NCBI GenBank assembly: GCA_024404275.1
Contig: JAKSQG010000035.1
Span: 1-12,353, forward strand
From: Clostridia bacterium
GTDB lineage: Bacteria; Bacillota; Clostridia; Christensenellales; Aristaeellaceae
Reading direction: 5' to 3'
DNA: 12,353 nucleotides
This document shows, one piece after another, positions 93 through 12,353 of the stretch. Both the position numbers and the translations under genes were made by a program. The notes under the pieces are model-generated. The model made no database searches. It had not been told where the DNA came from and saw only the letters and a program-made list of their open reading frames with translations. Positions within the stretch are counted from its first letter, which is position 1; each line of letters begins with the position of its first letter.

Positions 93-2192
93 TTATTTGT
101 TTTCCTTGGTGAGGTTCTCGCGGTAGCCGTCCAGTTCCTTCTCGTTGCCGTAAACAAAGTGACCGGGCAGGATCTCGCACCAGATGGGCTTATCCACGCT
201 GTAGTCATGCTGCGTGGGATCGTACACCAGCAGCTTCTTGTTGCGCTCGAGGTAGGGATTGGGGTTAGGCACAGCGGAAAGCAGCGCCTGCGTATAGGGA
301 TGCAGCGGATGACGGAAGAGTTCTTCCGCTTCAGCCAGCTCCACGATACGACCCTTGTGGATAACGGCGATACGGTCGGAAATGAAGCGCACCACGCTCA
401 GGTCATGAGCAATGAACAGATAGGTCAGGGAGCGCTTCTTTTTCAGCTCGTTGAGCAGGTTCAGCACCTGCGCGCGGATGGACACGTCCAGAGCGGAGAT
501 GGGCTCGTCCGCCACGATAAATTCAGGCTCCATGATCAGGCTGCGGGCGATACCGATGCGCTGACGCTGACCGCCGCTGAACTCATGCGGGAAACGGCTG
601 GAGAACTCCGGCAGCAGACCTACCTCATCCAGCGCGTGGCTCACCTTCGCGGCGCGCTCGGCCTCATCCTTGTACATGTGATGGTTGATGATGCCTTCGG
701 AAACGATGTAGTCAACCTTGGCACGTTCATTCAGTGAAGCCATGGGATCCTGGAAGATCATCTGGCAGCTGCGGATCACCTTCTTATCCAGTTCCTTGCT
801 GATCTTGCCGCTGATGCGCTCGCCCTTGAACAGCACTTCGCCGCCCGTGACGGGGTTGATACGCACAATGGCACGGCCAATGGTGGTTTTACCGGAGCCG
901 GATTCACCCACCAGAGAGAAAGTCTCGCCGCGGTAGATGGTAAAGTTGACATCGTCCACAGCCACAAACTTCTTCTTGCCGCTGCCAAAGCTGACCTGCA
1001 GGTTCTTGACCTCGATCAGGGGCTCACGGTTGGGATCCTCATGCGGATGCTTCAGTTCCTTGACGTTGCCGAAGTTACCGTTCTGCTGCTCAGCCAGACG
1101 CTTGATGGTGTCGGGCTGATCGATCTGCGGAGCACGCGGGTCCATCAGCCAGGTCTTGGCCTGATGGGTGGGCGTCACGTCATAGTTCGGCGGCTCTTCC
1201 AGGAAGTCGATGTTCAGGGCGTTATGGTTGCGGGGCGCAAAGGAATCGCCCTGGATCTTATTGAACAGGTTCGGAGGGGTACCGTCGATGGCGGGCAGCT
1301 TCTCGCCCTTGATGCCCAGCTGCGGCAGCGCGCTGAGCAGCGCCCAGGTGTAGGGATGGCGGGGATCGAAGAAGACTTCGTTCGCCAGACCGGTCTCAAT
1401 GATCTGACCGGCATACATGACCGCCACACGGTCCGCCACATTGGCCACCACACCCAGGACATGGGTGATGTAAATGATGGTCATATGGTTATCGGCCTGC
1501 AGCTTGCGGATCAGGTCAAGGATCTGCGCCTGAATGGTCACGTCCAGAGCAGTGGTGGGCTCGTCGCAGATCAGAATCTGCGGCTTGCAGGCCACGGCGA
1601 TGGCGATAACGGCTCTCTGGCGCATGCCGCCGGAGAACTCATGCGGATACTGCTTATAGCGCTTCTCGGGGAAAGGAATGCCCACCTCGCCCAGCAGACG
1701 GATGGTTTCCTCCTTGGCGGCCTTGCCGTGCAGACCCTGATTGAGTTCCACAGCTTCCTGAATCTGCTTACCGACCGTTTTGAGGGGGTTCAGGCTGGTC
1801 ATGGGGTCCTGCGTCACCATGGCGATGCGCTTGCCGCGGATGCCCTGCCATTCCTTTTCAGTGGTCAGCTTGGTCAGGTCGATACCGTCATACATGATGG
1901 AGCCGTTGGCGATGCGACCATTTTTATCCAGCATGCCCACGAACAATTTGGTAAATACGCTCTTACCGGAACCGGATTCACCTACGATAGCCAGCGTCTC
2001 GCCTTCATAAAGATCCAGAGAGCATCCGCGGATGGCCTTCAGTTTCTGGCCGCGCAGGGTGAATTCAACCTCCACGTCCTTGGCGGAAAGCAGCGGCTCG
2101 CTGGACAGCATCTGACGGCTCAGCTCTTCAAAGCGGGACGCAGTCTTCGCGTTTGAACCGGCTTGTTTGCTTGAAATGATTCTTTCGCTCAT
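93..2192 (-). CDS. Fused tandem ABC ATPase of an Opp/Dpp-type peptide importer (OppD-OppF fusion, GsiA-like architecture)
   Basis: 699-aa ORF with ATG start, TAA stop, and GGAGG 6 nt upstream of the start. Two complete nucleotide-binding domains: Walker A GESGSGKS and GESGSGKT, signatures FSGGMRQR and FSGGQRQR, Walker [13 protein letters not shown] and [13 protein letters not shown]-loops ITH and IAH. Both halves carry the oligopeptide-type C-terminal HPYT motif ([25 protein letters not shown]). Confidence 0.93.
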
Positions 2193-2204: not shown

Positions 2205-3275
2205 TTATCTGTGATTCCTGGGGTCGCACGCGTCAGAGAAGGCGTTGCCCACGAGGTAGAAAGTAATGGTGATAACGGATACAATGGCGGCCGGGAAGAT
2301 CAGAATGTAGGGATAGCTCATAAACAGGGAGCGGGCATTTCTGAGCAGAATGCCCAGAGAAGGCGTTTCCACACTGATCAGGCCCAGGTAAGCCAGAGTG
2401 GTCTCGTAAGCGATGGTGCCGGGGATGGCCAGGGCCAGGCGCAGCACGACCACGCTGATGAGGTACGGGAAAATGTTCTTCCACAGCGTGCGGGGCAGCG
2501 AGGTGCCCAGGCAGCGGGAAGCCAGGTTGTACTCACGGTCACGATACATGAACACCAGGTTACGCACGTTGCGGGCGGTGCCCAGCCAGCCGAAGGCGAT
2601 GAGCGCGCCGCCGATGACAAGGTAGGATTTACCGATCATCAGGGCAATCAGCGTCATGTAAATGATGGTGGGAATGTTATCGATCAGGTTGTACAGCTCG
2701 GTCATGGGGCGGTCCAGCTTGCGCACATAGCCCCACAGCAGACCCATCACCGTACCCAGCAGAATCTGACCGCCGGCAACGCTGATGGCCAGCAGGATGG
2801 ACAGGCGGGTGGCGTACCACACCTGGCACCAGTAGTCAGCGCCCAGAGAGTCGGTACCAAACCAGTAATCGGAGTTGGGAGCGATAAACGCGTTCTTGGT
2901 GTCATAGCGCAGGGCGGTAACATCGTATCTGCTGATGAGCGGCGCCACAAAGGTGAACACAAACAGCAGCACGAACACGATCAGCATAACGACGGCGCTC
3001 TTCTTTTTCAAGAAGTTCTGCCACACGCTCTTCCAGTAGGAGTACTGGCTGTAGCCGGTGCGCTCAGCATCCTGATAGTGATACTCCGCACGGGCAAACA
3101 GCTGATCTTCCGGCAGTTCGGAGCGTTTTTTCACGTGCGGACGGCCTTTTTCAAACACCTTTTCATCCGTGTTGAACTTATTGGGATCGGGACCGTCAAT
3201 AACGGCATCGCGGTTACCATTTTCGGGGTTGATGCCCTTGACAACGATATCCTTGAATGTTTTCTTGTTCGACAT
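2205..3275 (-). CDS. Opp/Dpp-type ABC permease, OppC-like subunit
   Basis: 356-aa ORF with TAA stop. Its start lies 1 nt after the upstream permease stop (TGA-T-ATG) and is preceded by GGGAGG. It has the OppC_N-like SYWKSVWQNFLKKK segment before TM1, multiple hydrophobic helices, and a typical BPD-transporter C-terminal half. The N-terminal cytoplasmic tail is about 55 aa longer than in E. coli OppC. Confidence 0.88.
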   Translation of the reverse strand: MSNKKTFKDIVVKGINPENGNRDAVIDGPDPNKFNTDEKVFEKGRPHVKKRSELPEDQLFARAEYHYQDAERTGYSQYSYWKSVWQNFLKKKSAVVMLIVFVLLFVFTFVAPLISRYDVTALRYDTKNAFIAPNSDYWFGTDSLGADYWCQVWYATRLSILLAISVAGGQILLGTVMGLLWGYVRKLDRPMTELYNLIDNIPTIIYMTLIALMIGKSYLVIGGALIAFGWLGTARNVRNLVFMYRDREYNLASRCLGTSLPRTLWKNIFPYLISVVVLRLALAIPGTIAYETTLAYLGLISVETPSLGILLRNARSLFMSYPYILIFPAAIVSVITITFYLVGNAFSDACDPRNHR

Positions 3276-3276
3276 A

Positions 3277-4686
3277 TCAGCGGGTACCTCCCTTCTTGGT
3301 CAGGCTGATTCTGGGATCCAGCACGCCCATGAGCAGGTCGCCCAGGAAAGTACCGATGATGCCCATCGCGGCATAGAACAGTACGATCGCCTGTACCAGG
3401 TTGGTATCATAGCGGGAAATGGCCAGCGTCAGCAGGGGGCCCATACCGGGAACGGAGAAGAAGCTTTCCGCCAGCAGGGAGCCGCCCACCGTCAGCAGGA
3501 TGTTGTAGGGCAGGTACTGTGCCAGAGGCAGGAAGGCGTTTTTCATCACGTGACGGAACATGACCTGCGTGGTGGTCAGACCTTTCAGCTGTGCCAGACG
3601 GATGTAATCCTTGTTGAGTTCATCCACCATGTAGCGGCGCATCCACAGCATATAGGAAGCAATGGAGCCCATCGCCAGACACAGGATCGGCGGAATGGAG
3701 GATTCCAGCGGCGTTGCCGCACGGTAGGTCATGGGCAGCTTGAACAGTGCGGCGCAGACATACATGATCAGCGTATAGCTGACCAGATGCGGCACGGCGT
3801 TGACAAAGATGGTGTAACCGGTACCAATCTGATCCAGCAAACCACCCTTGAAGCGTGCCTGCAGGATACCCAGCACAACGCCTACCACCAGGGCCAGTGC
3901 CAGAGAGCACAGACCCAGCACCATGGAGACGGGGAATTTTTCCATGATGACCTTGATGACCGACACACCGTGCTGAATGCGGTAGCTGTCACCCAGGGAG
4001 AAATGCAGCGTATAGTTGAAAGGATTGAGGTGGTTCAGCACATTGGCAAAACCGGAAGTACTGGTGGTAAGTGTCATTCCTTTCACTTTCGCGCCGATCT
4101 CGGTACGGATGTTTTCATTCAGGGTCGCGGTGAACGCTTCGGCAATATCGTTGCCGCAGGCCTTCTTGGCATCCTTGAGCAAAGTGCCCAGCGCCTTATC
4201 GGCGCACTGGCTGTACACAGACTCCAGAATGGCCGCGTCATCCGCGTCCTTTATTGCAAGCGCCGACGCGGTGATGCGTTCCACAACCGTCTGCGTCAGC
4301 ACCTTATCATTCATCTTTGTAATTTCCTTGGCAGCGGCATCCGAATCGGTATAATACTGGTTGATGGTCTTTTCCACCGCGGTGTGAAGTCCATCCACTG
4401 CGCCGGCGGCAAGCTCCACGCTGATGCGCGCCGACTGAGCGCTGTCATAGGTATATTCGATGCGGAACATTTGCGCATAGAAATTTTTCAGCTGAACAAA
4501 GGGATTATCCAGCAGACCGGCAGAGTTCAGCTTATCGATTTTCTGCGAGTCGGTCAGCTTGATCAGTTCATCTTCGGTGAAGAAATAATCGGTGGGCATC
4601 AGTCTCATCAGCAGAAATACCACGCTGACAATAACAAACAGCGTGATAAGAGACTGAAGCATTCTTTTGAGAATGTATTTGATCAT
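3277..4686 (-). CDS. Opp/Dpp-type ABC permease, OppB-like subunit with an enlarged first external loop
   Basis: 469-aa ORF with TGA stop and GAAGGAG 8 nt upstream of ATG. The N-terminus MIKYILKRMLQSLITLFVIVSVVFLLMRLMP is collinear with OppB/DppB. The GDxxxS-type motif (FSLGDSYRI) and the conserved permease core (IRLAQLKGL, LLAESFFSVPGMG) are present. About 150 extra residues (aa 76-228) sit between TM1 and the GD motif. Confidence 0.9.
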   Translation of the reverse strand: MIKYILKRMLQSLITLFVIVSVVFLLMRLMPTDYFFTEDELIKLTDSQKIDKLNSAGLLDNPFVQLKNFYAQMFRIEYTYDSAQSARISVELAAGAVDGLHTAVEKTINQYYTDSDAAAKEITKMNDKVLTQTVVERITASALAIKDADDAAILESVYSQCADKALGTLLKDAKKACGNDIAEAFTATLNENIRTEIGAKVKGMTLTTSTSGFANVLNHLNPFNYTLHFSLGDSYRIQHGVSVIKVIMEKFPVSMVLGLCSLALALVVGVVLGILQARFKGGLLDQIGTGYTIFVNAVPHLVSYTLIMYVCAALFKLPMTYRAATPLESSIPPILCLAMGSIASYMLWMRRYMVDELNKDYIRLAQLKGLTTTQVMFRHVMKNAFLPLAQYLPYNILLTVGGSLLAESFFSVPGMGPLLTLAISRYDTNLVQAIVLFYAAMGIIGTFLGDLLMGVLDPRISLTKKGGTR

Positions 4687-4834: not shown

Positions 4835-6739
4835 TTATTCCGCAGCTTCGTAAGCAGCCTTGAAGGCTTCGTATTCAGCGGTGGTGTACAGCTCGGTGCT
4901 GGTCTCCCAGTTCTCGTAGCGATAAGCGGAAATGCCGTAAGCAGCATAGATCTTGGTGTAGTCATTGACCTTGGTCAGCTGCCAGGACACATCGATGTAG
5001 CAGGGGATGGTCAGGGCATGAGCCACGAAGTAGGCTTCGGCCTTGGCGAAGGCATCATAGCGGGCATCCAGATCAGTGGTGATGTCGCGGCCTTCGGCAA
5101 CCATGGCGGTGTACTCTTCATAGGTGGCGATCAGGGCGGCGGCGGTGGGATCATCGGCGCGCTCATTGATCTTGGAGTAGCTCACAGAGTAGTAAGCGTT
5201 GTCCTCACCGTAGGTCTCCTGACCAACGAAGTTGACGGGATCGCCGAAGTCAGCGCCCCAACCGTTGATGTAGAAGGAAGCATAGGAGGGCTTACGGACT
5301 TCATTGGCCAGAGAAGAAACGTAGGTCTGGATGGTGAAGTTGATGTAATCCTCACCCAGGCAATCGGCGAAGATCTGCTGCAGCACCTTGGCGGTCTCGG
5401 CAGCGGTGGTGGAGGAACCGGAGATGTAGTAGCGAACTTCGATGGGGAAGCTCACGCCCAGAGCGGTCAGCTCTTCCATGGCCTGAGCCTTGTACTGAGC
5501 AGCCAGTTCGGGGTTGACACGAGCAGTGGTGTTCTCTTCGCCCAGGTAGGAAGCGACCATGTTGGCATAGTCCACACCCTGGCTGTTAACAGCAACGCCC
5601 AGACCGGTGTAGGTGTAGTTCTCGCACTTCTGGGGGTTGATGGGGTTGGTGCGCTCCAGGTACTTGGTCAGATCCAGGCCGTGCAGCCAGGACATACGGA
5701 AGGCCTCGTTCGCAATGGCGGTGTTCCAAGCGGTATCGGGGGTGTTGTCCAGGTTGTTGACGTTGTAGCACAGGTGCATCTGGTAGGAGTACTTGGTAGG
5801 ACGGGCTTCCACCAGGTTGTTGTAGTAGGGGTTGTTGGTGTCGTTGTAGATGGTCATCAGCTTGCTCTGGCTCAGAGCGGTGTAATCCAGCTGGCCGTTG
5901 GTGAACAGCTCGTAGGCCTTATCGGCGGATTCAACCATGGTGATGACGACTTCGTCGAACAGGTCGGCGTCTTCGTTCCAGTACAGGGGGTTGCGGGTCA
6001 GGGTCTTTTCAGAGCCGTTGTTGTAGCTGGTCACGGTGTAGGGACCGGAGTACCACAGATCGGCAGGAGACACAGACTGGGTGCCTTCCACGCCCAGCTC
6101 GTCGACCATGCCCTGGGGCAGGGGATACAGGCAAGCATAGGTGCAGACAGAGGCGAAATAGGGGGTGGGAGCGAAGCAGGTGAACTCGAGGGTGTACTCG
6201 TCCAGAGCCTTGATACCGACCTTGGCGAATTCCTCATTGTCATACAGCAGGGCTTCGGCGGCAGCGGTATCGCTCTCGGCCAGGGCCTTGGTGTAGGCAT
6301 AGTAGTCTTCGGTGCCAACCAGAGTCTCAAACAGCATGGAGGTGTTGGTGGCAGCGTTCTTGGCATAGTTCAGGGTCCATTCCACGCCGGTCATCCAGTC
6401 GGCGGTGGTCACGTCGCCCTTGTACTCGCCGTTGGCGTCGACCCAGCTCATATCCTCACGGATCTTGAAGGTCCACACGGTGGCGTCGTCGTTGGAGCTC
6501 CAGCTCTCAGCGGCCAGGCCCACCAGGCTGCCCTGGTTGTTGTTGTAAACCAGACCATCCAGGCAGTTGTTCAGGACGTTCAGTTCCTTGGCGCCCTGAG
6601 ACATCTGGATCAGCCAGTACTCCATTTCGTTCGCGGTGGTCTGATAGTCATGATACACATTCAGCTTTTCAGCGGAGACAACGCCCACGCAGCTGAGGAT
6701 CATGGCCAGAACCAGCACGAGAGAAGCAAACTTCTTCAT
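4835..6739 (-). CDS. Extracellular peptide/solute-binding protein, ABC family 5 (OppA/DppA-like)
   Basis: 634-aa ORF with TAA stop and AGGAGG 8 nt upstream of ATG. The N-terminal signal sequence MKKFASLVLVLAMILSCVGVVSAEK contains either a near-lipobox (ILSC) or a VSA/EK signal peptidase I site. Size, composition and position as first gene of an Opp-type operon fit a family-5 SBP. Confidence 0.85.
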   Translation of the reverse strand: MKKFASLVLVLAMILSCVGVVSAEKLNVYHDYQTTANEMEYWLIQMSQGAKELNVLNNCLDGLVYNNNQGSLVGLAAESWSSNDDATVWTFKIREDMSWVDANGEYKGDVTTADWMTGVEWTLNYAKNAATNTSMLFETLVGTEDYYAYTKALAESDTAAAEALLYDNEEFAKVGIKALDEYTLEFTCFAPTPYFASVCTYACLYPLPQGMVDELGVEGTQSVSPADLWYSGPYTVTSYNNGSEKTLTRNPLYWNEDADLFDEVVITMVESADKAYELFTNGQLDYTALSQSKLMTIYNDTNNPYYNNLVEARPTKYSYQMHLCYNVNNLDNTPDTAWNTAIANEAFRMSWLHGLDLTKYLERTNPINPQKCENYTYTGLGVAVNSQGVDYANMVASYLGEENTTARVNPELAAQYKAQAMEELTALGVSFPIEVRYYISGSSTTAAETAKVLQQIFADCLGEDYINFTIQTYVSSLANEVRKPSYASFYINGWGADFGDPVNFVGQETYGEDNAYYSVSYSKINERADDPTAAALIATYEEYTAMVAEGRDITTDLDARYDAFAKAEAYFVAHALTIPCYIDVSWQLTKVNDYTKIYAAYGISAYRYENWETSTELYTTAEYEAFKAAYEAAE

Positions 6740-6929: not shown

Positions 6930-6958
6930 TTGTCAAATCCCCCTTTTCAGTGTATGAT
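6930..6958 (+). promoter_or_regulatory. Sigma-70/SigA-type promoter of the membrane-protein/dipeptidase operon
   Basis: TTGTCA (6930-6935), a 17-nt spacer, then TATGAT (6953-6958). These are followed by GGGAGG (6972-6977) and ATG at 6983. Confidence 0.55.
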
Positions 6959-6982
6959 GGAACCGTGTTATGGGAGGTCAGA

Positions 6983-7399
6983 ATGAAAAACAAACTGAAA
7001 GAAAATTTTACCCGTGTGATCATCCGTCCCACCATCTATATGACGCTCACACGCTTTCCCGTTGCCCTGCTCATCGTGCTGCTGGCGGATTTTTTCCTGC
7101 CCACCTCGCTTACCCGCATCAAAACCAACGGCTGCGCCTTCTTCGGCGTGCTGTTTCTGCTGATGGCCTGGGTGGCGTGGCTGCGCATGGACGGCATGCA
7201 TCTTCCCAAGCCCATGATGATGCGCCTTAACCTACGCAAAAAGCCGATGATCTCCTCCTATGGAGATATGATCGACCACATCGATGAGCGCCCCGAAGCC
7301 TTCGAGGACCTTCAGGAGGGCGAAAAAGACGCCTGCTGCCTGATTGCCGACCTCATCTGTGCCGCGGCGATGATCATCATTTCCCTTTATATTGTCTGA
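6983..7399 (+). CDS. Small integral membrane protein of unknown function
   Basis: I trimmed the ORF track entry 6950-7399 to the ATG at 6983. That ATG has GGGAGG 5 nt upstream, whereas the GTG at 6950 lies inside the predicted promoter spacer. The product is 138 aa with a TGA stop. It has three hydrophobic segments (FPVALLIVLLADFFLP, CAFFGVLFLLMAWVAWL, CCLIADLICAAAMIIISLYIV) and an acidic loop. I recognise no family motif. Confidence 0.6.
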   Translation: MKNKLKENFTRVIIRPTIYMTLTRFPVALLIVLLADFFLPTSLTRIKTNGCAFFGVLFLLMAWVAWLRMDGMHLPKPMMMRLNLRKKPMISSYGDMIDHIDERPEAFEDLQEGEKDACCLIADLICAAAMIIISLYIV

Positions 7400-7418: not shown

Positions 7419-8060
7419 ATGATGTTTTCCAATGACGCCTCCGGATTTGTGTCGCTTTCGCATTTTCTGCCATCGATTCTGTGCGAGATCCGTTATCATT
7501 CTTCCTATAATTTTATAGGCGACCGCATCGACGGCTATGAGGAGCCTTTGGCGCTTGCTACCCGTGAAGCCGCCGAAGCGCTGAAAAAAGCCGCCGCCCT
7601 TGCCGCCGCGAAGGGATATATCTTCAAAGTGTATGATGCCTATCGCCCGCAATGCGCGGTGGATCATTTTGTGCGTTGGGCAGAGGACACCGCCGATACG
7701 CGCATGAAAAGCGTTTTCTATCCCGACGTCAATAAAAAAGACCTGTTTTCACAGGGCTTTATTGCCAGGCACTCCGGTCACAGCCGCGGCAGCACCATCG
7801 ACCTGACGCTGTTTGACATCGCCGCGGGCAAGGAAGTGGATATGGGCGGACCATTCGACTTTTTCGGTCCTCTCTCCCACCCCGATCACACCGAAGGGCT
7901 GACCGGAGAGCAATACAACCACCGTCAGCTGCTGCGCGGCTTCATGCTGGACAGCGGCTTCCGTCCCCTTTCCACCGAGTGGTGGCACTTCACCCTCGAC
8001 AACGAGCCCTATCCTGATACCTATTTCACCTTTCCCGTCCGCATGGATTCATTGAGATAA
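7419..8060 (+). CDS. ddpX: D-alanyl-D-alanine dipeptidase, VanX/DdpX family (M15D zinc peptidase)
   Basis: 213-aa ORF with TAA stop, collinear with VanX over its full length. The substrate-binding Arg context is YDAYRP. The zinc ligands and catalytic residues sit in SGHSRGSTIDLTL (His, Asp) and EWWHF (Glu, His). The C-terminal EPYPDTYFTFPV matches the VanX EPYPNSYFDFPV. Confidence 0.9.
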   Translation: MMFSNDASGFVSLSHFLPSILCEIRYHSSYNFIGDRIDGYEEPLALATREAAEALKKAAALAAAKGYIFKVYDAYRPQCAVDHFVRWAEDTADTRMKSVFYPDVNKKDLFSQGFIARHSGHSRGSTIDLTLFDIAAGKEVDMGGPFDFFGPLSHPDHTEGLTGEQYNHRQLLRGFMLDSGFRPLSTEWWHFTLDNEPYPDTYFTFPVRMDSLR

Positions 8061-8092
8061 TCGGCAAGGGGAACCAATCGCACATAATAATA

Positions 8093-8128
8093 AAGACGAG
8101 CAAGCCTGTTGAAGCTGCTGCCCGTCTT
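8093..8128. terminator. Bidirectional rho-independent terminator between the convergent ddpX-like and trmO genes
   Basis: Imperfect GC-rich stem AAGACGAGCAAGC ... GCTGCTGCCCGTCTT. It is followed by TTTTTGTTTATT on the plus strand and by a T-rich CTTTATTATTAT tract on the minus strand. It sits 5 nt beyond the trmO stop. Confidence 0.6.
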
Positions 8129-8133
8129 TTTGT

Positions 8134-8823
8134 TTATTCATTTTCGACTCTTGTCACCGTCAGAATGCCATTTTCAACGCGGAAGCCAACATCCATTCCC
8201 GCGAAGGACAGACCGTAGACAGTCTCCGGTGCATCCTCATACCCGGGGCGCGGGTCACATGCCAGCACGCCTTTCAAAGCAGAACGCTTCTCCGTCGGCA
8301 CTTTGTCAAGAAGTTCCTGCGGAAACACCACCTGCAGGCGATGCGTACGCGTTTCGGCGGTATACCCCTCCGATGCTTCTGGATGGCAGTCCGCCACGGG
8401 AATATACGGCTTGATATCATAGATGGGGGTGCCGTCCAGCAGGTCCGCACCTGATACTGTCAGCACCGGCGCTTCGGGCGCATCCAGGTCGATGCCCGTC
8501 AGCTTCACACAGGAAAGCCCCAGTCCGTTGGGACGATACGGCGCACGGGAGGCAAACACGCCGACCCTTGTATTTCCGCCAAGGCGCGGCGGGCGCACTG
8601 TGGGACGGAACTCGCTGACGCGGGTCTTTGAAAACTCCCAGATGAGCCACAGATGGCTGAAGCCTTCCAGTCCCCGCACCGCTTCCACACGGCGGAATTC
8701 CGGTTCAAATACGATATACGCCTGCAGTTCACTCACCAGACCGCTTTGCCGCGGAATGCCGAACTTTTGCTTGAAATCCGTATGAATGTAAGCAATGGGG
8801 TGCAGAATATGATTCTCACTCAT
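8134..8823 (-). CDS. trmO: tRNA (N6-threonylcarbamoyladenosine37-N6)-methyltransferase TrmO (TsaA/YaeB family)
   Basis: 229 aa counted from the ATG at 8823 ([29 protein letters not shown]...), which is the typical family N-terminus, with GGAG 7 nt upstream. Contains the DGTPIYDIKPYIP motif. TAA stop. The longer track ORF (to 8922) would overlap ispE by 107 nt and adds only an Arg-rich non-homologous leader. Confidence 0.85.
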   Translation of the reverse strand: MSENHILHPIAYIHTDFKQKFGIPRQSGLVSELQAYIVFEPEFRRVEAVRGLEGFSHLWLIWEFSKTRVSEFRPTVRPPRLGGNTRVGVFASRAPYRPNGLGLSCVKLTGIDLDAPEAPVLTVSGADLLDGTPIYDIKPYIPVADCHPEASEGYTAETRTHRLQVVFPQELLDKVPTEKRSALKGVLACDPRPGYEDAPETVYGLSFAGMDVGFRVENGILTVTRVENE

Positions 8824-9661
8824 AACAGGTCTCCGTTCTGAGCACAACAGGCCACTTGCCCTTGAGTGCTTCCGCCGCCCTATCCGCCGCCGCTGCGCTT
8901 TCAAATACGCCATAGGTGACACTGCCGCTGCCCGTCATGCGGGCAAACAACGCTCCCTGTGCCAGCAGCTCTTTCTGTGCCGCCGCAATGGCGGGCACCA
9001 ACCGCATGGCAGCACCCTGCAGTGAGTTGACCGAGCTTTTTTCCAGCAGCTGCATATCCCCCGTGTCGATCGCCTTCAATACACCAAATGTATCTCCATG
9101 AACCGAAGGCATCGCATCCGATTCACGGAATACCGCCGCCGTGCTCAATTCTTCCCTCGGCTGCAAAAGCACCAGCGGATAGGTACGCCTTCCCCCGATG
9201 GGCGTCAGCTTTTCACCGATGCCCTGCACACGGCACAGACCGCCCTGCAGGCAAAAAGGGATATCCGCCCCCAAGGGCAGCGCCAGTTCTTGCAGCGTTT
9301 CAAGCGGCAAATGAAGCTGCCACAACTGATTCAGCATTTTCAATGCCGCCGCCGCATCCGCGCTTCCGCCGCCCATGCCCGCTCCCGCAGGGATACGCTT
9401 GACCAGCGTCATGGCTGCCCCCTGCTGTACGCCCGCAAACGCTTTCAGACAGCGCGCTGCACGCAGCACCAGATTGTTTTCATCCGCCGCCACCGTATCC
9501 GAACCGCTCAGCGTCAGGCTCAGCGTTTCCGCCTCCTACGCAATCAGCGTATCGGACAGTGTCACGCTCTGCATGACCATGTCCAGCAGATGATAGCCGT
9601 CCTATCGGCGTCCGGTCACCTCCAGCGACCAGTTGATTTTGGCTTTCGCTTCAAGCTTCAT
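8816..9661 (-). CDS. ispE: 4-diphosphocytidyl-2-C-methyl-D-erythritol kinase IspE, interrupted by two in-frame TAG codons (recoded or very recent pseudogene)
   Basis: I joined three track fragments that share one frame: [76 protein letters not shown]...[23 protein letters not shown]...[12 protein letters not shown]. The IspE N-terminal AKINxxLxV...DGYH motif, GHMP ATP loop and C-terminal GSG motif are all present. The total is 281 codons plus a TGA stop, which is a normal IspE length. Confidence 0.85.
9536..9538 (-). other. In-frame TAG, ispE codon 42
   Basis: Coding-strand context CTG ATT GCG TAG GAG GCG GAA ACG. It is in the same frame as codon 20 and as the downstream GHMP motifs. Confidence 0.95.
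9602..9604 (-). other. In-frame TAG, ispE codon 20
   Basis: Coding-strand context GGA CGC CGA TAG GAC GGC TAT CAT. It sits inside the conserved G-x-R-x-DGYH block. Confidence 0.95.
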
Positions 9662-11126
9662 TTTCAATGTGCCGCGGCGGCTCCTTTCCCATATCCAAGG
9701 TAAATTCAAACACGCTGCCCCGGTCCGAGGGAAGCAGCCGCAGCTGATGGCCATGCTTGTCCATGATGCATTTGCAGATGGCCAGCCCCAGACCTGTGCC
9801 CTTGCCCACCGTGTGAGCCTTGTCTGCCTTGTAGAAACGGTCAAAAATGTGCGGGGCGTCCTATGGCGCAATGCCCGGTCCGTTATCCGCCACCGTCACA
9901 TGGATCAGCTTGTTTTCCATACGGGTCGCAAGGGTGATTTTTCCGCCTTCCTGCGTATACTTGACCGCATTGCTGAGCAGATTGGTCAGCACCTGATAGA
10001 TCTGTTCCGCATCGGCATGCGCATACATGGGATCGCTGCCGAAGTTCAATTCGACCTCCATGTTTTTTTCATCCAGCTGCGTCATATTGGCAATGATGAC
10101 GCGGCGAATGCTTTCATGGATGTCAAAATCACTCAGTGCCAGCTCGGTAGTACCGTTCTCCATGCGGGAAAGATTCAGCAGGTTGCCCACCAGACGGGAA
10201 AGCCGTTTGGTCTCGTCCAGCACGATCTGCATATACCGTTCCTGCTCCTCACGGTCGATGGTGCCATCCGCCATGCACTGCAGGTAACCCTGAATGCTGG
10301 TCATGGGCGAGCGAAGCTCATGCGATACATTGGCGATAAAATCCTTGCGTGTCTGCTCCAGTTCATCCAACTGCGCAGCCATAATATTAAAGGCATGTGC
10401 CAGTTCCCGGGTCTCCAAACTGCCGCTCTCGGGAACACGGCGGCCGAAACGCCCCTCCGCCATCTCGCGGGAGACCGCCGCCATCTGCTTGAGCGGGCGG
10501 ATCATGGGTCGTGTGATGAGCAGCACGACCAGTGCCGAACAGATCATCACGATCAGGGCCGCAAGCACCACCTGCCAGATAAGGGAATGAAAACCGCTGT
10601 AAACCGTCTGTGCCGCAGTCTGTACAAATACAGCCCCCAGCACCGTGCCATTATCGATCCAGGGCACCGCCACCGTAAACATAGGGCCCGATTCACTCTG
10701 GACGCTGGTCACGATCTCCTGTCCGGTCAGCACCTGACGCAGCGTACTGATCACCAGTTCGCGGTCAAAATCGACCATTTCGGTCTAAAGCATGTCCGGG
10801 GTGATGTACACTGTGGTCTGCCCTGTGCGGTCCACCACCACGGCGTAAGCGGAAAAGTCCTCATAAATACGGTTGACTTTCCATTTGATATATTCCGTTG
10901 TCGTGTTAACATGCAGAACACGTTCTGCCACCAAATTGTTGCGCACACGGCTGGCCATATAGGCCAGGTCATACGCCTGCACCTTCAATTCCTGCATGCG
11001 GGTGGAGATATAGTTGCTGCGCGACGCATACCAGAAGATGCTGACCAGTGACAACACACATACCAGGATCACCGCCAGCACCACGGTCATCAGCCGCACA
11101 TACATGCCGTTCCATCTTTTTTTCAT
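9651..11126 (-). CDS. Membrane sensor histidine kinase (HAMP-HisKA-HATPase_c), interrupted by two in-frame TAG codons
   Basis: One frame runs from ATG 11126 to TGA 9651-9653, giving 491 codons. Elements in order: TM1 ([24 protein letters not shown]), external domain, TM2 ([23 protein letters not shown]), HAMP ([18 protein letters not shown]), H-box [20 protein letters not shown]-box [10 protein letters not shown]1 [25 protein letters not shown]2 [15 protein letters not shown]. The TAGs are at codons 114 and 422. Confidence 0.85.
9861..9863 (-). other. In-frame TAG, histidine kinase codon 422
   Basis: Coding-strand context GGC ATT GCG CCA TAG GAC GCC CCG CAC ATT TTT. It lies between the G1 box (DNGPGI) and the F/G2 boxes of the ATPase domain. 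Confidence 0.95.
10785..10787 (-). other. In-frame TAG, histidine kinase codon 114
   Basis: Coding-strand context CCG GAC ATG CTT TAG ACC GAA ATG GTC. It lies in the predicted external sensor domain between TM1 and TM2. Confidence 0.95.
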
Positions 11127-11815
11127 TTTACTTCAAATTTGTAGCCGACACTCCACACCGTACGAATCTGCCAGCCATATTCCTCACAGCCGATCAGCTT
11201 TTCCCTCAGACGTTTGATGTGCACATCCACCGTGCGGCTATCGCCGAAAAAGTCAAAGCCCCATACCTGCTCCAGCAGCTGCTCACGCGTAAACACACGG
11301 TTCTGATGGGAAGCAAGGAAGTACAATACCTCCAGCTCCTTGGGCGGCATTTCGACGGCTTTTCCCTGATAATATACCTCGTACTTTTCCAGGCTCACCG
11401 TCAGCCCCGGGAAGGAGAGGGTGTTCTTTTCGCCCTCGCTCGGCATCGTACGGCGCAGCACCGCCTTGACGCGGGCAGCCAGCTCCTTGTTGTCAAAGGG
11501 CTTGGTGATATAGTCATCCGCGCCCAGTTCCAAACCCAGTACCTTGTCAAAGGTCTCTCCCTTCGCAGTCAGCATGATAATGGGAATCTGTGAGATCTGA
11601 CGCACCGAACGGCACACCTGCCAGCCGTCCATGCCGGGCATCATGATATCCAGAATCATCATTTGCGGCGGATTCTGGCGGAATGCCTCCAGCGCGGTAT
11701 CACCGCGGCTGAAGGTCTGCACCTCGTAGCCTTCTTTTTTCAGGCACAGTTCCACAAGGCCCGCAATATTGGGGTCATCATCCACTACCATGATGAAGCT
11801 TTTTTCATTCGCCAT
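11123..11815 (-). CDS. OmpR/PhoB-family response regulator
   Basis: 230-aa ORF with GGGAGGG 7 nt upstream of ATG. The receiver domain has VVDDD, MILDIMMPGMDG (phospho-Asp) and LTAKG. The winged-helix DNA-binding C-terminus has TVDVHIKRLREKL and TVWSVGYKF. The TGA stop overlaps the kinase start (ATGA). Confidence 0.92.
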   Translation of the reverse strand: MANEKSFIMVVDDDPNIAGLVELCLKKEGYEVQTFSRGDTALEAFRQNPPQMMILDIMMPGMDGWQVCRSVRQISQIPIIMLTAKGETFDKVLGLELGADDYITKPFDNKELAARVKAVLRRTMPSEGEKNTLSFPGLTVSLEKYEVYYQGKAVEMPPKELEVLYFLASHQNRVFTREQLLEQVWGFDFFGDSRTVDVHIKRLREKLIGCEEYGWQIRTVWSVGYKFEVK

Positions 11816-11834: not shown

Positions 11835-12353
11835 TTATTTCAGGGTCACAATGGTCACGCCGTCCTCGCCCTCGCCGTACTGGCCCAGTCGGAAAGACCT
11901 GACCTGAGGATTCATTTTCAAATGCCGCTGGATGCCGCTGCGCAGCACACCCATGCCCTTTCCGTGCACGATTCCGACCTCGCCGAGACCTGCCAGGATG
12001 GCTTCGTCCAGATACTGGTCCACTTCCATCAGTGCTTCCTCCAGGCTCATGCCGCGCACATCGCATTCCATGTGTACCGTACGGCTTGCGGCGCCCGTGT
12101 GGACCATGACGGCGCTCTTTTTCTTCTTGGCTTCGCTCTTCTTTTCCTGCACGGGCCGCAGCTGGCTCAGGTTGGCTTTAAGTTTCAGTATGCCTGCCTG
12201 CACCTGCACATCGCCGTTGGCGTCGGGCTTGCTGAGCACGGTGCCGCGGGTGTTGAGGTGCAGGATATCCACGGTATCCCCCACGTTCAGCGTCTTGGGT
12301 GCCTGTGTCAGGGTCTGCGTACCCTGAATGCCCTCTGCCACGCTGTCGGCGCT
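11835..12353 (-). CDS. mutS2: Endonuclease MutS2, C-terminal portion with Smr domain (5' end lies outside the window)
   Basis: The frame is open to the window edge and ends in a TAA stop. The KOW-like segment VGDTVDILHLNTRGTVL is followed by the Smr domain: CDVRGMSLEEALMEVDQYLDEAILAGLGEVGIVHGKGMGVLRSGIQRHLKMNPQVRSFRLG...GVTIVTLK. Confidence 0.85.
   Translation of the reverse strand, partial: SADSVAEGIQGTQTLTQAPKTLNVGDTVDILHLNTRGTVLSKPDANGDVQVQAGILKLKANLSQLRPVQEKKSEAKKKKSAVMVHTGAASRTVHMECDVRGMSLEEALMEVDQYLDEAILAGLGEVGIVHGKGMGVLRSGIQRHLKMNPQVRSFRLGQYGEGEDGVTIVTLK

Follow-up and report, generated by a model that had tools for sequence, protein, structure and literature searches.

In-frame TAG codons in a sensor kinase gene point to a UAG-to-glutamate code in a lineage of gut Clostridia

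The stretch of DNA analysed here (12,353 nt, positions 1 to 12,353 of contig JAKSQG010000035.1, assembly GCA_024404275.1, a Clostridia bacterium of the Aristaeellaceae; hereafter the window) carries a gene for a sensor histidine kinase whose reading frame holds two TAG codons, at codons 114 and 422, next to an apparently normal response regulator gene. How is such a kinase made, if it is made at all? The original prediction regarded the two amber codons as a matter of this one gene. Its placement of the codons and its guess of glutamate (Glu) for the column of codon 422 held up, whereas the kinase-specific view did not, since TAG stands in frame in at least 13 genes of the lineage, including the adjacent ispE. 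The in-frame TAGs appear to reflect a lineage-wide code change of which the kinase is one symptom, and UAG is very probably translated as a sense codon in these uncultured organisms.

The kinase and its two TAG codons

Translation of the minus strand of the window (9480-11126) gives a kinase frame that starts at ATG 11126-11124, stops at TGA 9653-9651 and contains exactly two TAGs, at the coordinates and codon numbers first proposed (Table 1). Codon 114 (...ITPDML-TAG-TEMVDF...; TAG ACC GAA ATG in the DNA, as described) lies between the transmembrane segments TM1 (residues 10-34) and TM2 (182-204), in the external domain, and codon 422 falls in the interval from the G1 box to the F box, both as predicted. 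With the TAGs entered as unknown residues, Pfam recognizes HAMP at 203-254, HisKA at 260-325 and HATPase_c at 372-479; the last match is complete and spans TAG422 in frame, so that the profile alignment proposed as a check of the read-through translation runs without a break across the TAGs. Provided that TAG422 is read through, the protein has everything that defines a class I kinase (an H box with its histidine and the N, G1, F and G2 boxes), and its best match among solved structures is SrrB (E = 1.7e-43). The regulator is intact, as had been claimed, and its stop codon TGA overlaps the kinase ATG by 4 nt (ATGA, 11123-11126); at the other end of the gene, the start of ispE overlaps the kinase by 11 nt (9651-9661).

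The lineage includes the metagenome-assembled genomes (MAGs) GCA_024500545.1 and GCA_045599485.1 and contigs from samples SRR27361835, SRR21151038 and ERZ27247129, and we covered about 75 kb of its DNA from four related strains or samples. Looking up the exact protein sequence of the regulator led to a 7.8-kb contig of sample SRR27361835 with 94% DNA identity to the window (L001), against which the regulator shows 17 synonymous and no non-synonymous differences. A scan of species-representative genomes led to contig JAZRWA010000062.1 of GCA_045599485.1 (L003), whose kinase is 96% identical in amino acids to that of the window. Further sequence came from 40.7 kb read of a 44-kb contig of GCA_045599485.1, reached through cluster-member identifiers (L052-L054), from two contigs of ENA sample ERZ27247129 (L055, L056) and from a second contig of SRR27361835 (L057).

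L001 has both kinase TAGs, and L003 shares TAG422. Recurrence in independent assemblies is more than chance would give, and it bears directly on the idea that the TAGs are sequencing or assembly artefacts, or that the DNA is contamination from a recoded eukaryote or phage. Every sequence used here does come from a metagenome assembly, and UAR-to-Glu codes are known in some ciliates and trypanosomatids. However, identical TAGs turn up in different samples, and the genes are arranged in typical bacterial operons with start/stop overlaps, in synteny with other Clostridia and at 60-86% identity to them. All genes of the window end in TAA or TGA, with TAA the commonest stop, and no phage genes surround the kinase. 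We consider an artefact or a contaminant barely credible.

The standard code would leave three pieces of the kinase, 113, 305 and 69 codons long, the same split that gene callers make, and the gene could then be seen as a pseudogene with two nonsense mutations. The comparison of three strains speaks clearly against this. The overall dN/dS is 0.05-0.08, and it stays between 0.03 and 0.19 in each segment: 0.11-0.19 for codons 1-113, 0.03-0.06 for codons 115-421 and 0.03-0.09 for codons 423-491, at dS values of 0.07-0.42. TAG422 has been kept across that divergence. The gene has the same length and the same TGA stop in all three, with no indel and no frameshift, so a locus decaying by further frameshifts, the outcome that would have overturned the original prediction, is not what the relatives display. 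Premature stops in the window are TAG every time and never TAA or TGA, and the same TAG pattern is found in PolC, IspE, MutS2 and TruB. The 69 codons beyond TAG422, which include the F and G2 boxes, differ among the strains by 10-12 synonymous and 1-2 non-synonymous changes; such a low dN/dS indicates that this segment is translated and constrained. Decay of the kinase is therefore, in our judgement, highly improbable.

The same selection pattern excludes termination followed by reinitiation at codon 114, which had been thought conceivable because of the ATG two codons further on. The sister genome has GAG at codon 114 and purifying selection acts on the segment before it, hence TM1 belongs to the protein. 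Frameshifting by +1 at CTT-TAG and hopping over the TAG were also considered and rejected, given the zero-frame homology, a residue count that matches the orthologues and the GAG of the sister strain. Taken together, the sequence comparisons make it quite probable that the gene encodes an intact HAMP-HisKA-HATPase_c sensor kinase of 491 residues that has Glu at positions 114 and 422 and is made in translational coupling with its regulator.

UAG as a probable sense codon and the residue it would specify

The kinase is not alone. We found 16 distinct in-frame TAG sites in the lineage: two each in the kinase, IspE and MutS2, three in an M42 peptidase and one each in TruB, PolC, YlxQ, a VanY-like peptidase, a MATE transporter, an ROK kinase and a TPR protein. 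Homology runs on in frame past every one of them. None of about 47 lineage genes ends in TAG, while the relatives would lead one to expect 17% (P ~1.6e-4), and 7 of about 35 genes on the 40.7 kb of the GCA_045599485.1 contig hold an in-frame TAG. The codon is rare, at about 0.1% of all codons and 1.6% of Glu codons in the window, whose G+C content is 55-56%. The density of TAG differs by strain, from two sites in 25 kb in the ENA strain (L055, L056) to 10 in the 40.7 kb of GCA_045599485.1 (L053, L054).

Which amino acid does UAG specify? For 12 of the 16 sites another strain offers a sense codon at the same position, and this is GAG or Glu in 10 cases, AAG in one (M42 site b, next to an adjoining compensating change) and CAG in one (the ROK kinase). 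Both kinase columns have sense codons in relatives, a point that a comparison of orthologues had been proposed to check: codon 114 is GAG in L003, and 29 of 43 orthologues have Glu in the column of codon 422. The guess that this column is normally Glu was thus borne out, with GIAPE in SrrB, yet the residue is K in VicK, A in WalK and H or D in HK853. Four TAG sites fall in conserved Glu columns. Besides codon 422, these are MutS2-160 (30 of 31 orthologues), codon 42 of IspE (13 of 20) and site a of the M42 peptidase, in the GxSGxE motif (all four solved homologues). Among the 16 sites no TAG lies in a conserved Gln, Lys, Trp or Tyr column; the YlxQ site, set against solved structures, falls in a variable column and is uninformative. 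This tally is limited to verified coding strands, because antisense reading frames mislead (CTA and CTG leucine codons, reversed, become TAG and CAG).

We also weighed the possibility that UAG is a sense codon for another or an ambiguous residue, be it Gln as in recoded phages, Lys, pyrrolysine (Pyl) or a mixture of Glu and Gln. The CAG at the ROK site and the AAG at M42 site b are compatible with it, as is the Gln found at codon 422 in 7 of the 43 kinase orthologues. Moreover, Gln-tRNA is made from Glu-tRNA in Firmicutes, and amidation of a tRNA with anticodon CUA is possible in principle. Nevertheless, a change from CAG to TAG is a transition and CAG is about as common as GAG (127 against 118 codons), so that CAG should have been a frequent partner of TAG; that it is one just once makes Glu the best reading. 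The conserved Glu columns (MutS2-160 and M42 site a above all) point the same way. We hold a residue other than Glu to be unlikely, and most likely UAG encodes Glu and the kinase is functional, as far as the sequences allow us to judge.

Most of the sites are polymorphic with GAG, which suggests that TAG is gained and lost fast and that this turnover is ongoing.

Proposed codon capture and decoding, and points to the contrary

The distribution of TAG in relatives was followed in four groups: A, the present lineage; B, nine species at 60-65% kinase identity (rumen "RUG", Hadza-gut and other MAGs; loci L004-L011 and L050); C, two species at 52%; and D, 31 Christensenellales at 43-51%. A codon-usage classifier assigned a TAG end to 0 of 91 reading frames in B, 0 of 29 in C and 41 of 237 in D, and in A only to fragments cut at internal TAGs. 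Orthologues of seven genes gave the same picture, with TAG ends in 0 of 18 (A), 0 of 50 (B), 0 of 13 (C) and 31 of 164 (D). The difference between B and D is significant by either count (Fisher, P = 9e-7 and 1.6e-4), and in the distant Christensenellales TAG closes 17-19% of genes. One methyltransferase gene of group C does end in TAG. Within the gene bodies of group B, TAG was absent from all of about 91 called genes. At one locus of this group (L011, ~4070-4150) about 25 TAG triplets follow one another ahead of a gene as a (TAG)n microsatellite; the genes of this genome are otherwise free of TAG.

The code change is thus phylogenetically coherent, with sense TAGs in each of the lineage's four strains or samples and no TAG in the nine sister species, throughout which UAG seems to be an unassigned codon. 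Codon capture would be the simplest reading of this distribution. The family-level clade would first have lost TAG altogether, a stage that the nine sister species may still represent, and the present lineage would then have re-introduced it as a rare Glu codon, mostly by GAG-to-TAG changes.

By analogy with known stop reassignments, UAG would be decoded by a Glu-charged tRNA whose anticodon is CUA, plausibly a derivative of tRNA-Glu. Charging could be carried out by a non-discriminating glutamyl-tRNA synthetase (GluRS), with no amidation by GatCAB, and release factor 1 (RF1) would be lost, weakened or unable to compete. The GluRS of Firmicutes is usually non-discriminating and tolerates variation at anticodon position 36.

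Several observations weigh against a Glu code of this kind. ARAGORN, run on the window and on each of the 57 loci, and Rfam, run on 91 kb, gave no tRNA(CUA); the lineage DNA, roughly 75 kb, yielded no tRNA gene and no Rfam RNA at all. Two patterns derived from the relatives' tRNA-Glu(UUC), one joining the D-arm to the CUA anticodon and the other the anticodon to the 3' half, had no match in JGI metagenomes and IMG/VR, although these scans are probably blind to the lineage, since the kinase search finds it in NCBI and Logan sources alone. The AAG and CAG partners mean that Glu is assigned by majority rule. The sample is one of 16 sites and not of a whole genome, and Glu decoding is read from DNA sequence. 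Finally, the sites share a sequence context that simple, free reassignment does not predict. The bases after TAG are GA (an Asp or Glu codon) at 11 of 16 sites, against 12-16% for background GAG codons (P ~1e-7); a purine stands at +4 in 15 of 16 (background 57%, P 0.002); and a Leu or Pro codon precedes 9 of 16 (background 14%, P 8e-5). The first and the last of these features together, C[CT]N-TAG-GA, occur at 8 of 16 sites and at 2.6% of the background. Decoding could accordingly be context-dependent or compete with termination. Possible causes of the bias are good decoding or poor termination in this context, a preference for "P/L-E-D/E" at helix N-termini, or a mutational bias.

It is mainly because of this bias that context-dependent read-through keeps a small probability. 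UAG would then still be an RF1 stop with partial suppression, in a dual-meaning or regulatory code in which the full-length kinase is a minor product, and it is known from E. coli that a C-terminal Pro and the +4 base modulate the efficiency of termination and suppression. Three observations do not fit. TAG serves as a stop in no gene of the lineage or of its nine nearest relatives; early TAGs interrupt genes such as those of PolC and IspE (codon 20), both expected to be essential, where a low level of read-through should be lethal; and TAG and GAG swap freely across strains, as synonymous codons do. We therefore think it rather improbable that UAG remains a stop codon, and return to UAG as a Glu codon.

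Distant relatives carry a tRNA array (Pro-Glu-Met-Asp-Thr-Tyr...) at a distance of about 7 kb upstream from the kinase gene; the matching region of the present lineage has no tRNA.

The remaining genes of the window are listed in Table 1. Beside the H-loop of the first ABC domain, its OppDF differs from that of the sister genome by an Asp-to-Val change (ITHVLGVV in the window, ITHDLGVV in the sister). The OppDF reading frame of the window has 699 codons, and a 320-residue product of a 12,355-bp contig shares a 90% cluster with the OppDF of the sister genome; an exact-protein look-up of the window OppDF and OppC returned no record. Between TrmO and the VanX-like gene, L001 carries a two-gene insertion (4940-5689; an HTH_26 regulator and a 141-residue protein) that is absent from the window (~8061-8133). 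Elsewhere in the lineage, the M42 peptidase gene of sample SRR27361835 (L057, 9274-10221) is broken by TAA, in contrast with the other interrupted genes, where the interruptions are TAG only; it also has many radical substitutions, which makes it a true pseudogene or a poor assembly. The genes of a HAD hydrolase and a PPIase flank a fragment of a gene for phage Mu F-like head morphogenesis (L003 2688-3347; L053 12690-13349).

Table 1. Features of the window (coordinates on the forward strand; L001 and L003 are the related contigs introduced in the text)
Feature	Position	Strand	Remarks
Sensor histidine kinase	9651-11126	-	491 codons with TAG as sense; TM1, extracytoplasmic domain, TM2, HAMP, HisKA, HATPase_c
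In-frame TAG, kinase codon 114	10785-10787	-	Extracytoplasmic sensor domain; TAG in the window and L001, GAG in L003
In-frame TAG, kinase codon 422	9861-9863	-	ATP-binding domain, interval from G1 box to F box; TAG in the window, L001 and L003
H box SHELRSP with phospho-acceptor His	10305-10325	-	Kinase
G1 box DNGPGI	9870-9887	-	Inside the HATPase_c match of the kinase
F box FDRFY (9831-9845) and G2 box GTGLGL (9783-9800)	9783-9845	-	Both 3' of TAG422
OmpR-type response regulator	11123-11815	-	Cognate, intact; MCQ2453637.1 in MAG GCA_024500545.1
IspE	8816-9661	-	GHMP kinase of the MEP pathway; two in-frame TAGs
In-frame TAG, IspE codon 20 (GRR-TAG-DGYH)	9602-9604	-	GAG in L001, Glu in L003
In-frame TAG, IspE codon 42 (LIA-TAG-EAE)	9536-9538	-	TAG in L001, Glu in L003
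MutS2, C-terminus	11835-12353	-	
GAG codon, Smr domain of MutS2	12039-12041	-	Same position TAG in L001 and L003
OppDF	93-2192	-	Oligopeptide ABC transporter
OppC	2205-3275	-	Oligopeptide ABC transporter
OppB	3277-4686	-	Oligopeptide ABC transporter
OppA	4835-6739	-	Oligopeptide ABC transporter
Small membrane protein	6950-7399	+	
VanX-like M15 dipeptidase	7419-8060	+	
TrmO	8134-8820	-	

The lineage among known genetic codes

Full-text literature searches found no report of a bacterial UAG-to-Glu code. According to the Codetta screen, the bacterial stop reassignments known in 2021 all concerned UGA (PMC8629427), no reassignment of TAG in bacteria is listed in a 2026 preprint based on about 2.7 million assemblies (10.64898/2026.04.02.715157), and the gTranslate preprint mentions only UAG-to-Pyl, cited there as genome-wide in archaea. 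We consider it likely that the lineage holds the first natural bacterial code in which UAG means Glu, beside a sister clade with apparently unassigned UAG that numbers at least nine species from gut and rumen, with decoding restricted by context (C[CT]N-UAG-GA) and a rapid turnover between TAG and GAG.

If this is true, a new code table is called for, used by gut Clostridia of a free-living type and moderate G+C content. It would also be a rare natural case of codon capture with its "unassigned" stage alive in sister species, in which the order of RF1 loss and suppressor tRNA birth becomes testable, and a natural tRNA(CUA)/GluRS pair in a host free of RF1 would interest genetic-code engineers. 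There is a practical side as well. The kinase is present in the searched protein collection as fragments of 305 and 414 residues. Gene callers split or truncate an appreciable share of the genes in these MAGs, and the annotation of the clade, its completeness estimates and the protein databases are wrong as a consequence.

The situation resembles the bacterial UGA codes of table 4 (Trp, in Mycoplasmatales and others) and table 25 (Gly, in Absconditabacteria and Gracilibacteria). These too are genome-wide and phylogenetically coherent changes, in which the codon does not end genes but does occur within conserved ones. It differs in the codon and the residue, and in a genome that is neither AT-rich nor reduced. 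The crAss-like and Lak phages (table 15, UAG to Gln) give sense to the same codon by means of a suppressor tRNA(CUA). However, these are phage genomes, the residue is Gln and the code is thought to time late genes in standard-code hosts, whereas here the codon sits in chromosomal housekeeping genes and aligns with Glu; the gene context, together with CAG in just 1 of 12 swaps, sets the lineage apart from phage code 15.

Peritrich ciliates and Blastocrithidia nonstop read UAG as Glu (UAR to Glu; PMC12153298) and are, with the phages, the closest precedents. These eukaryotic codes are nuclear and reassign UAA along with UAG, while TAA stays the main stop here. UAG-to-Pyl decoding, in Methanosarcinales and some Firmicutes, is another prokaryotic use of UAG as a sense codon. 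It requires pylTSBCD and is tied to methylamine methyltransferases; in the present lineage, by contrast, TAG occupies Glu columns, an argument against Pyl, and is exchanged for GAG between strains. As for the kinase that raised the question, it shares its domain architecture and boxes with EnvZ, PhoR, SrrB and WalK, class I kinases paired with regulators of the OmpR family, and once TAG is taken as Glu it would be an ordinary protein of this kind.

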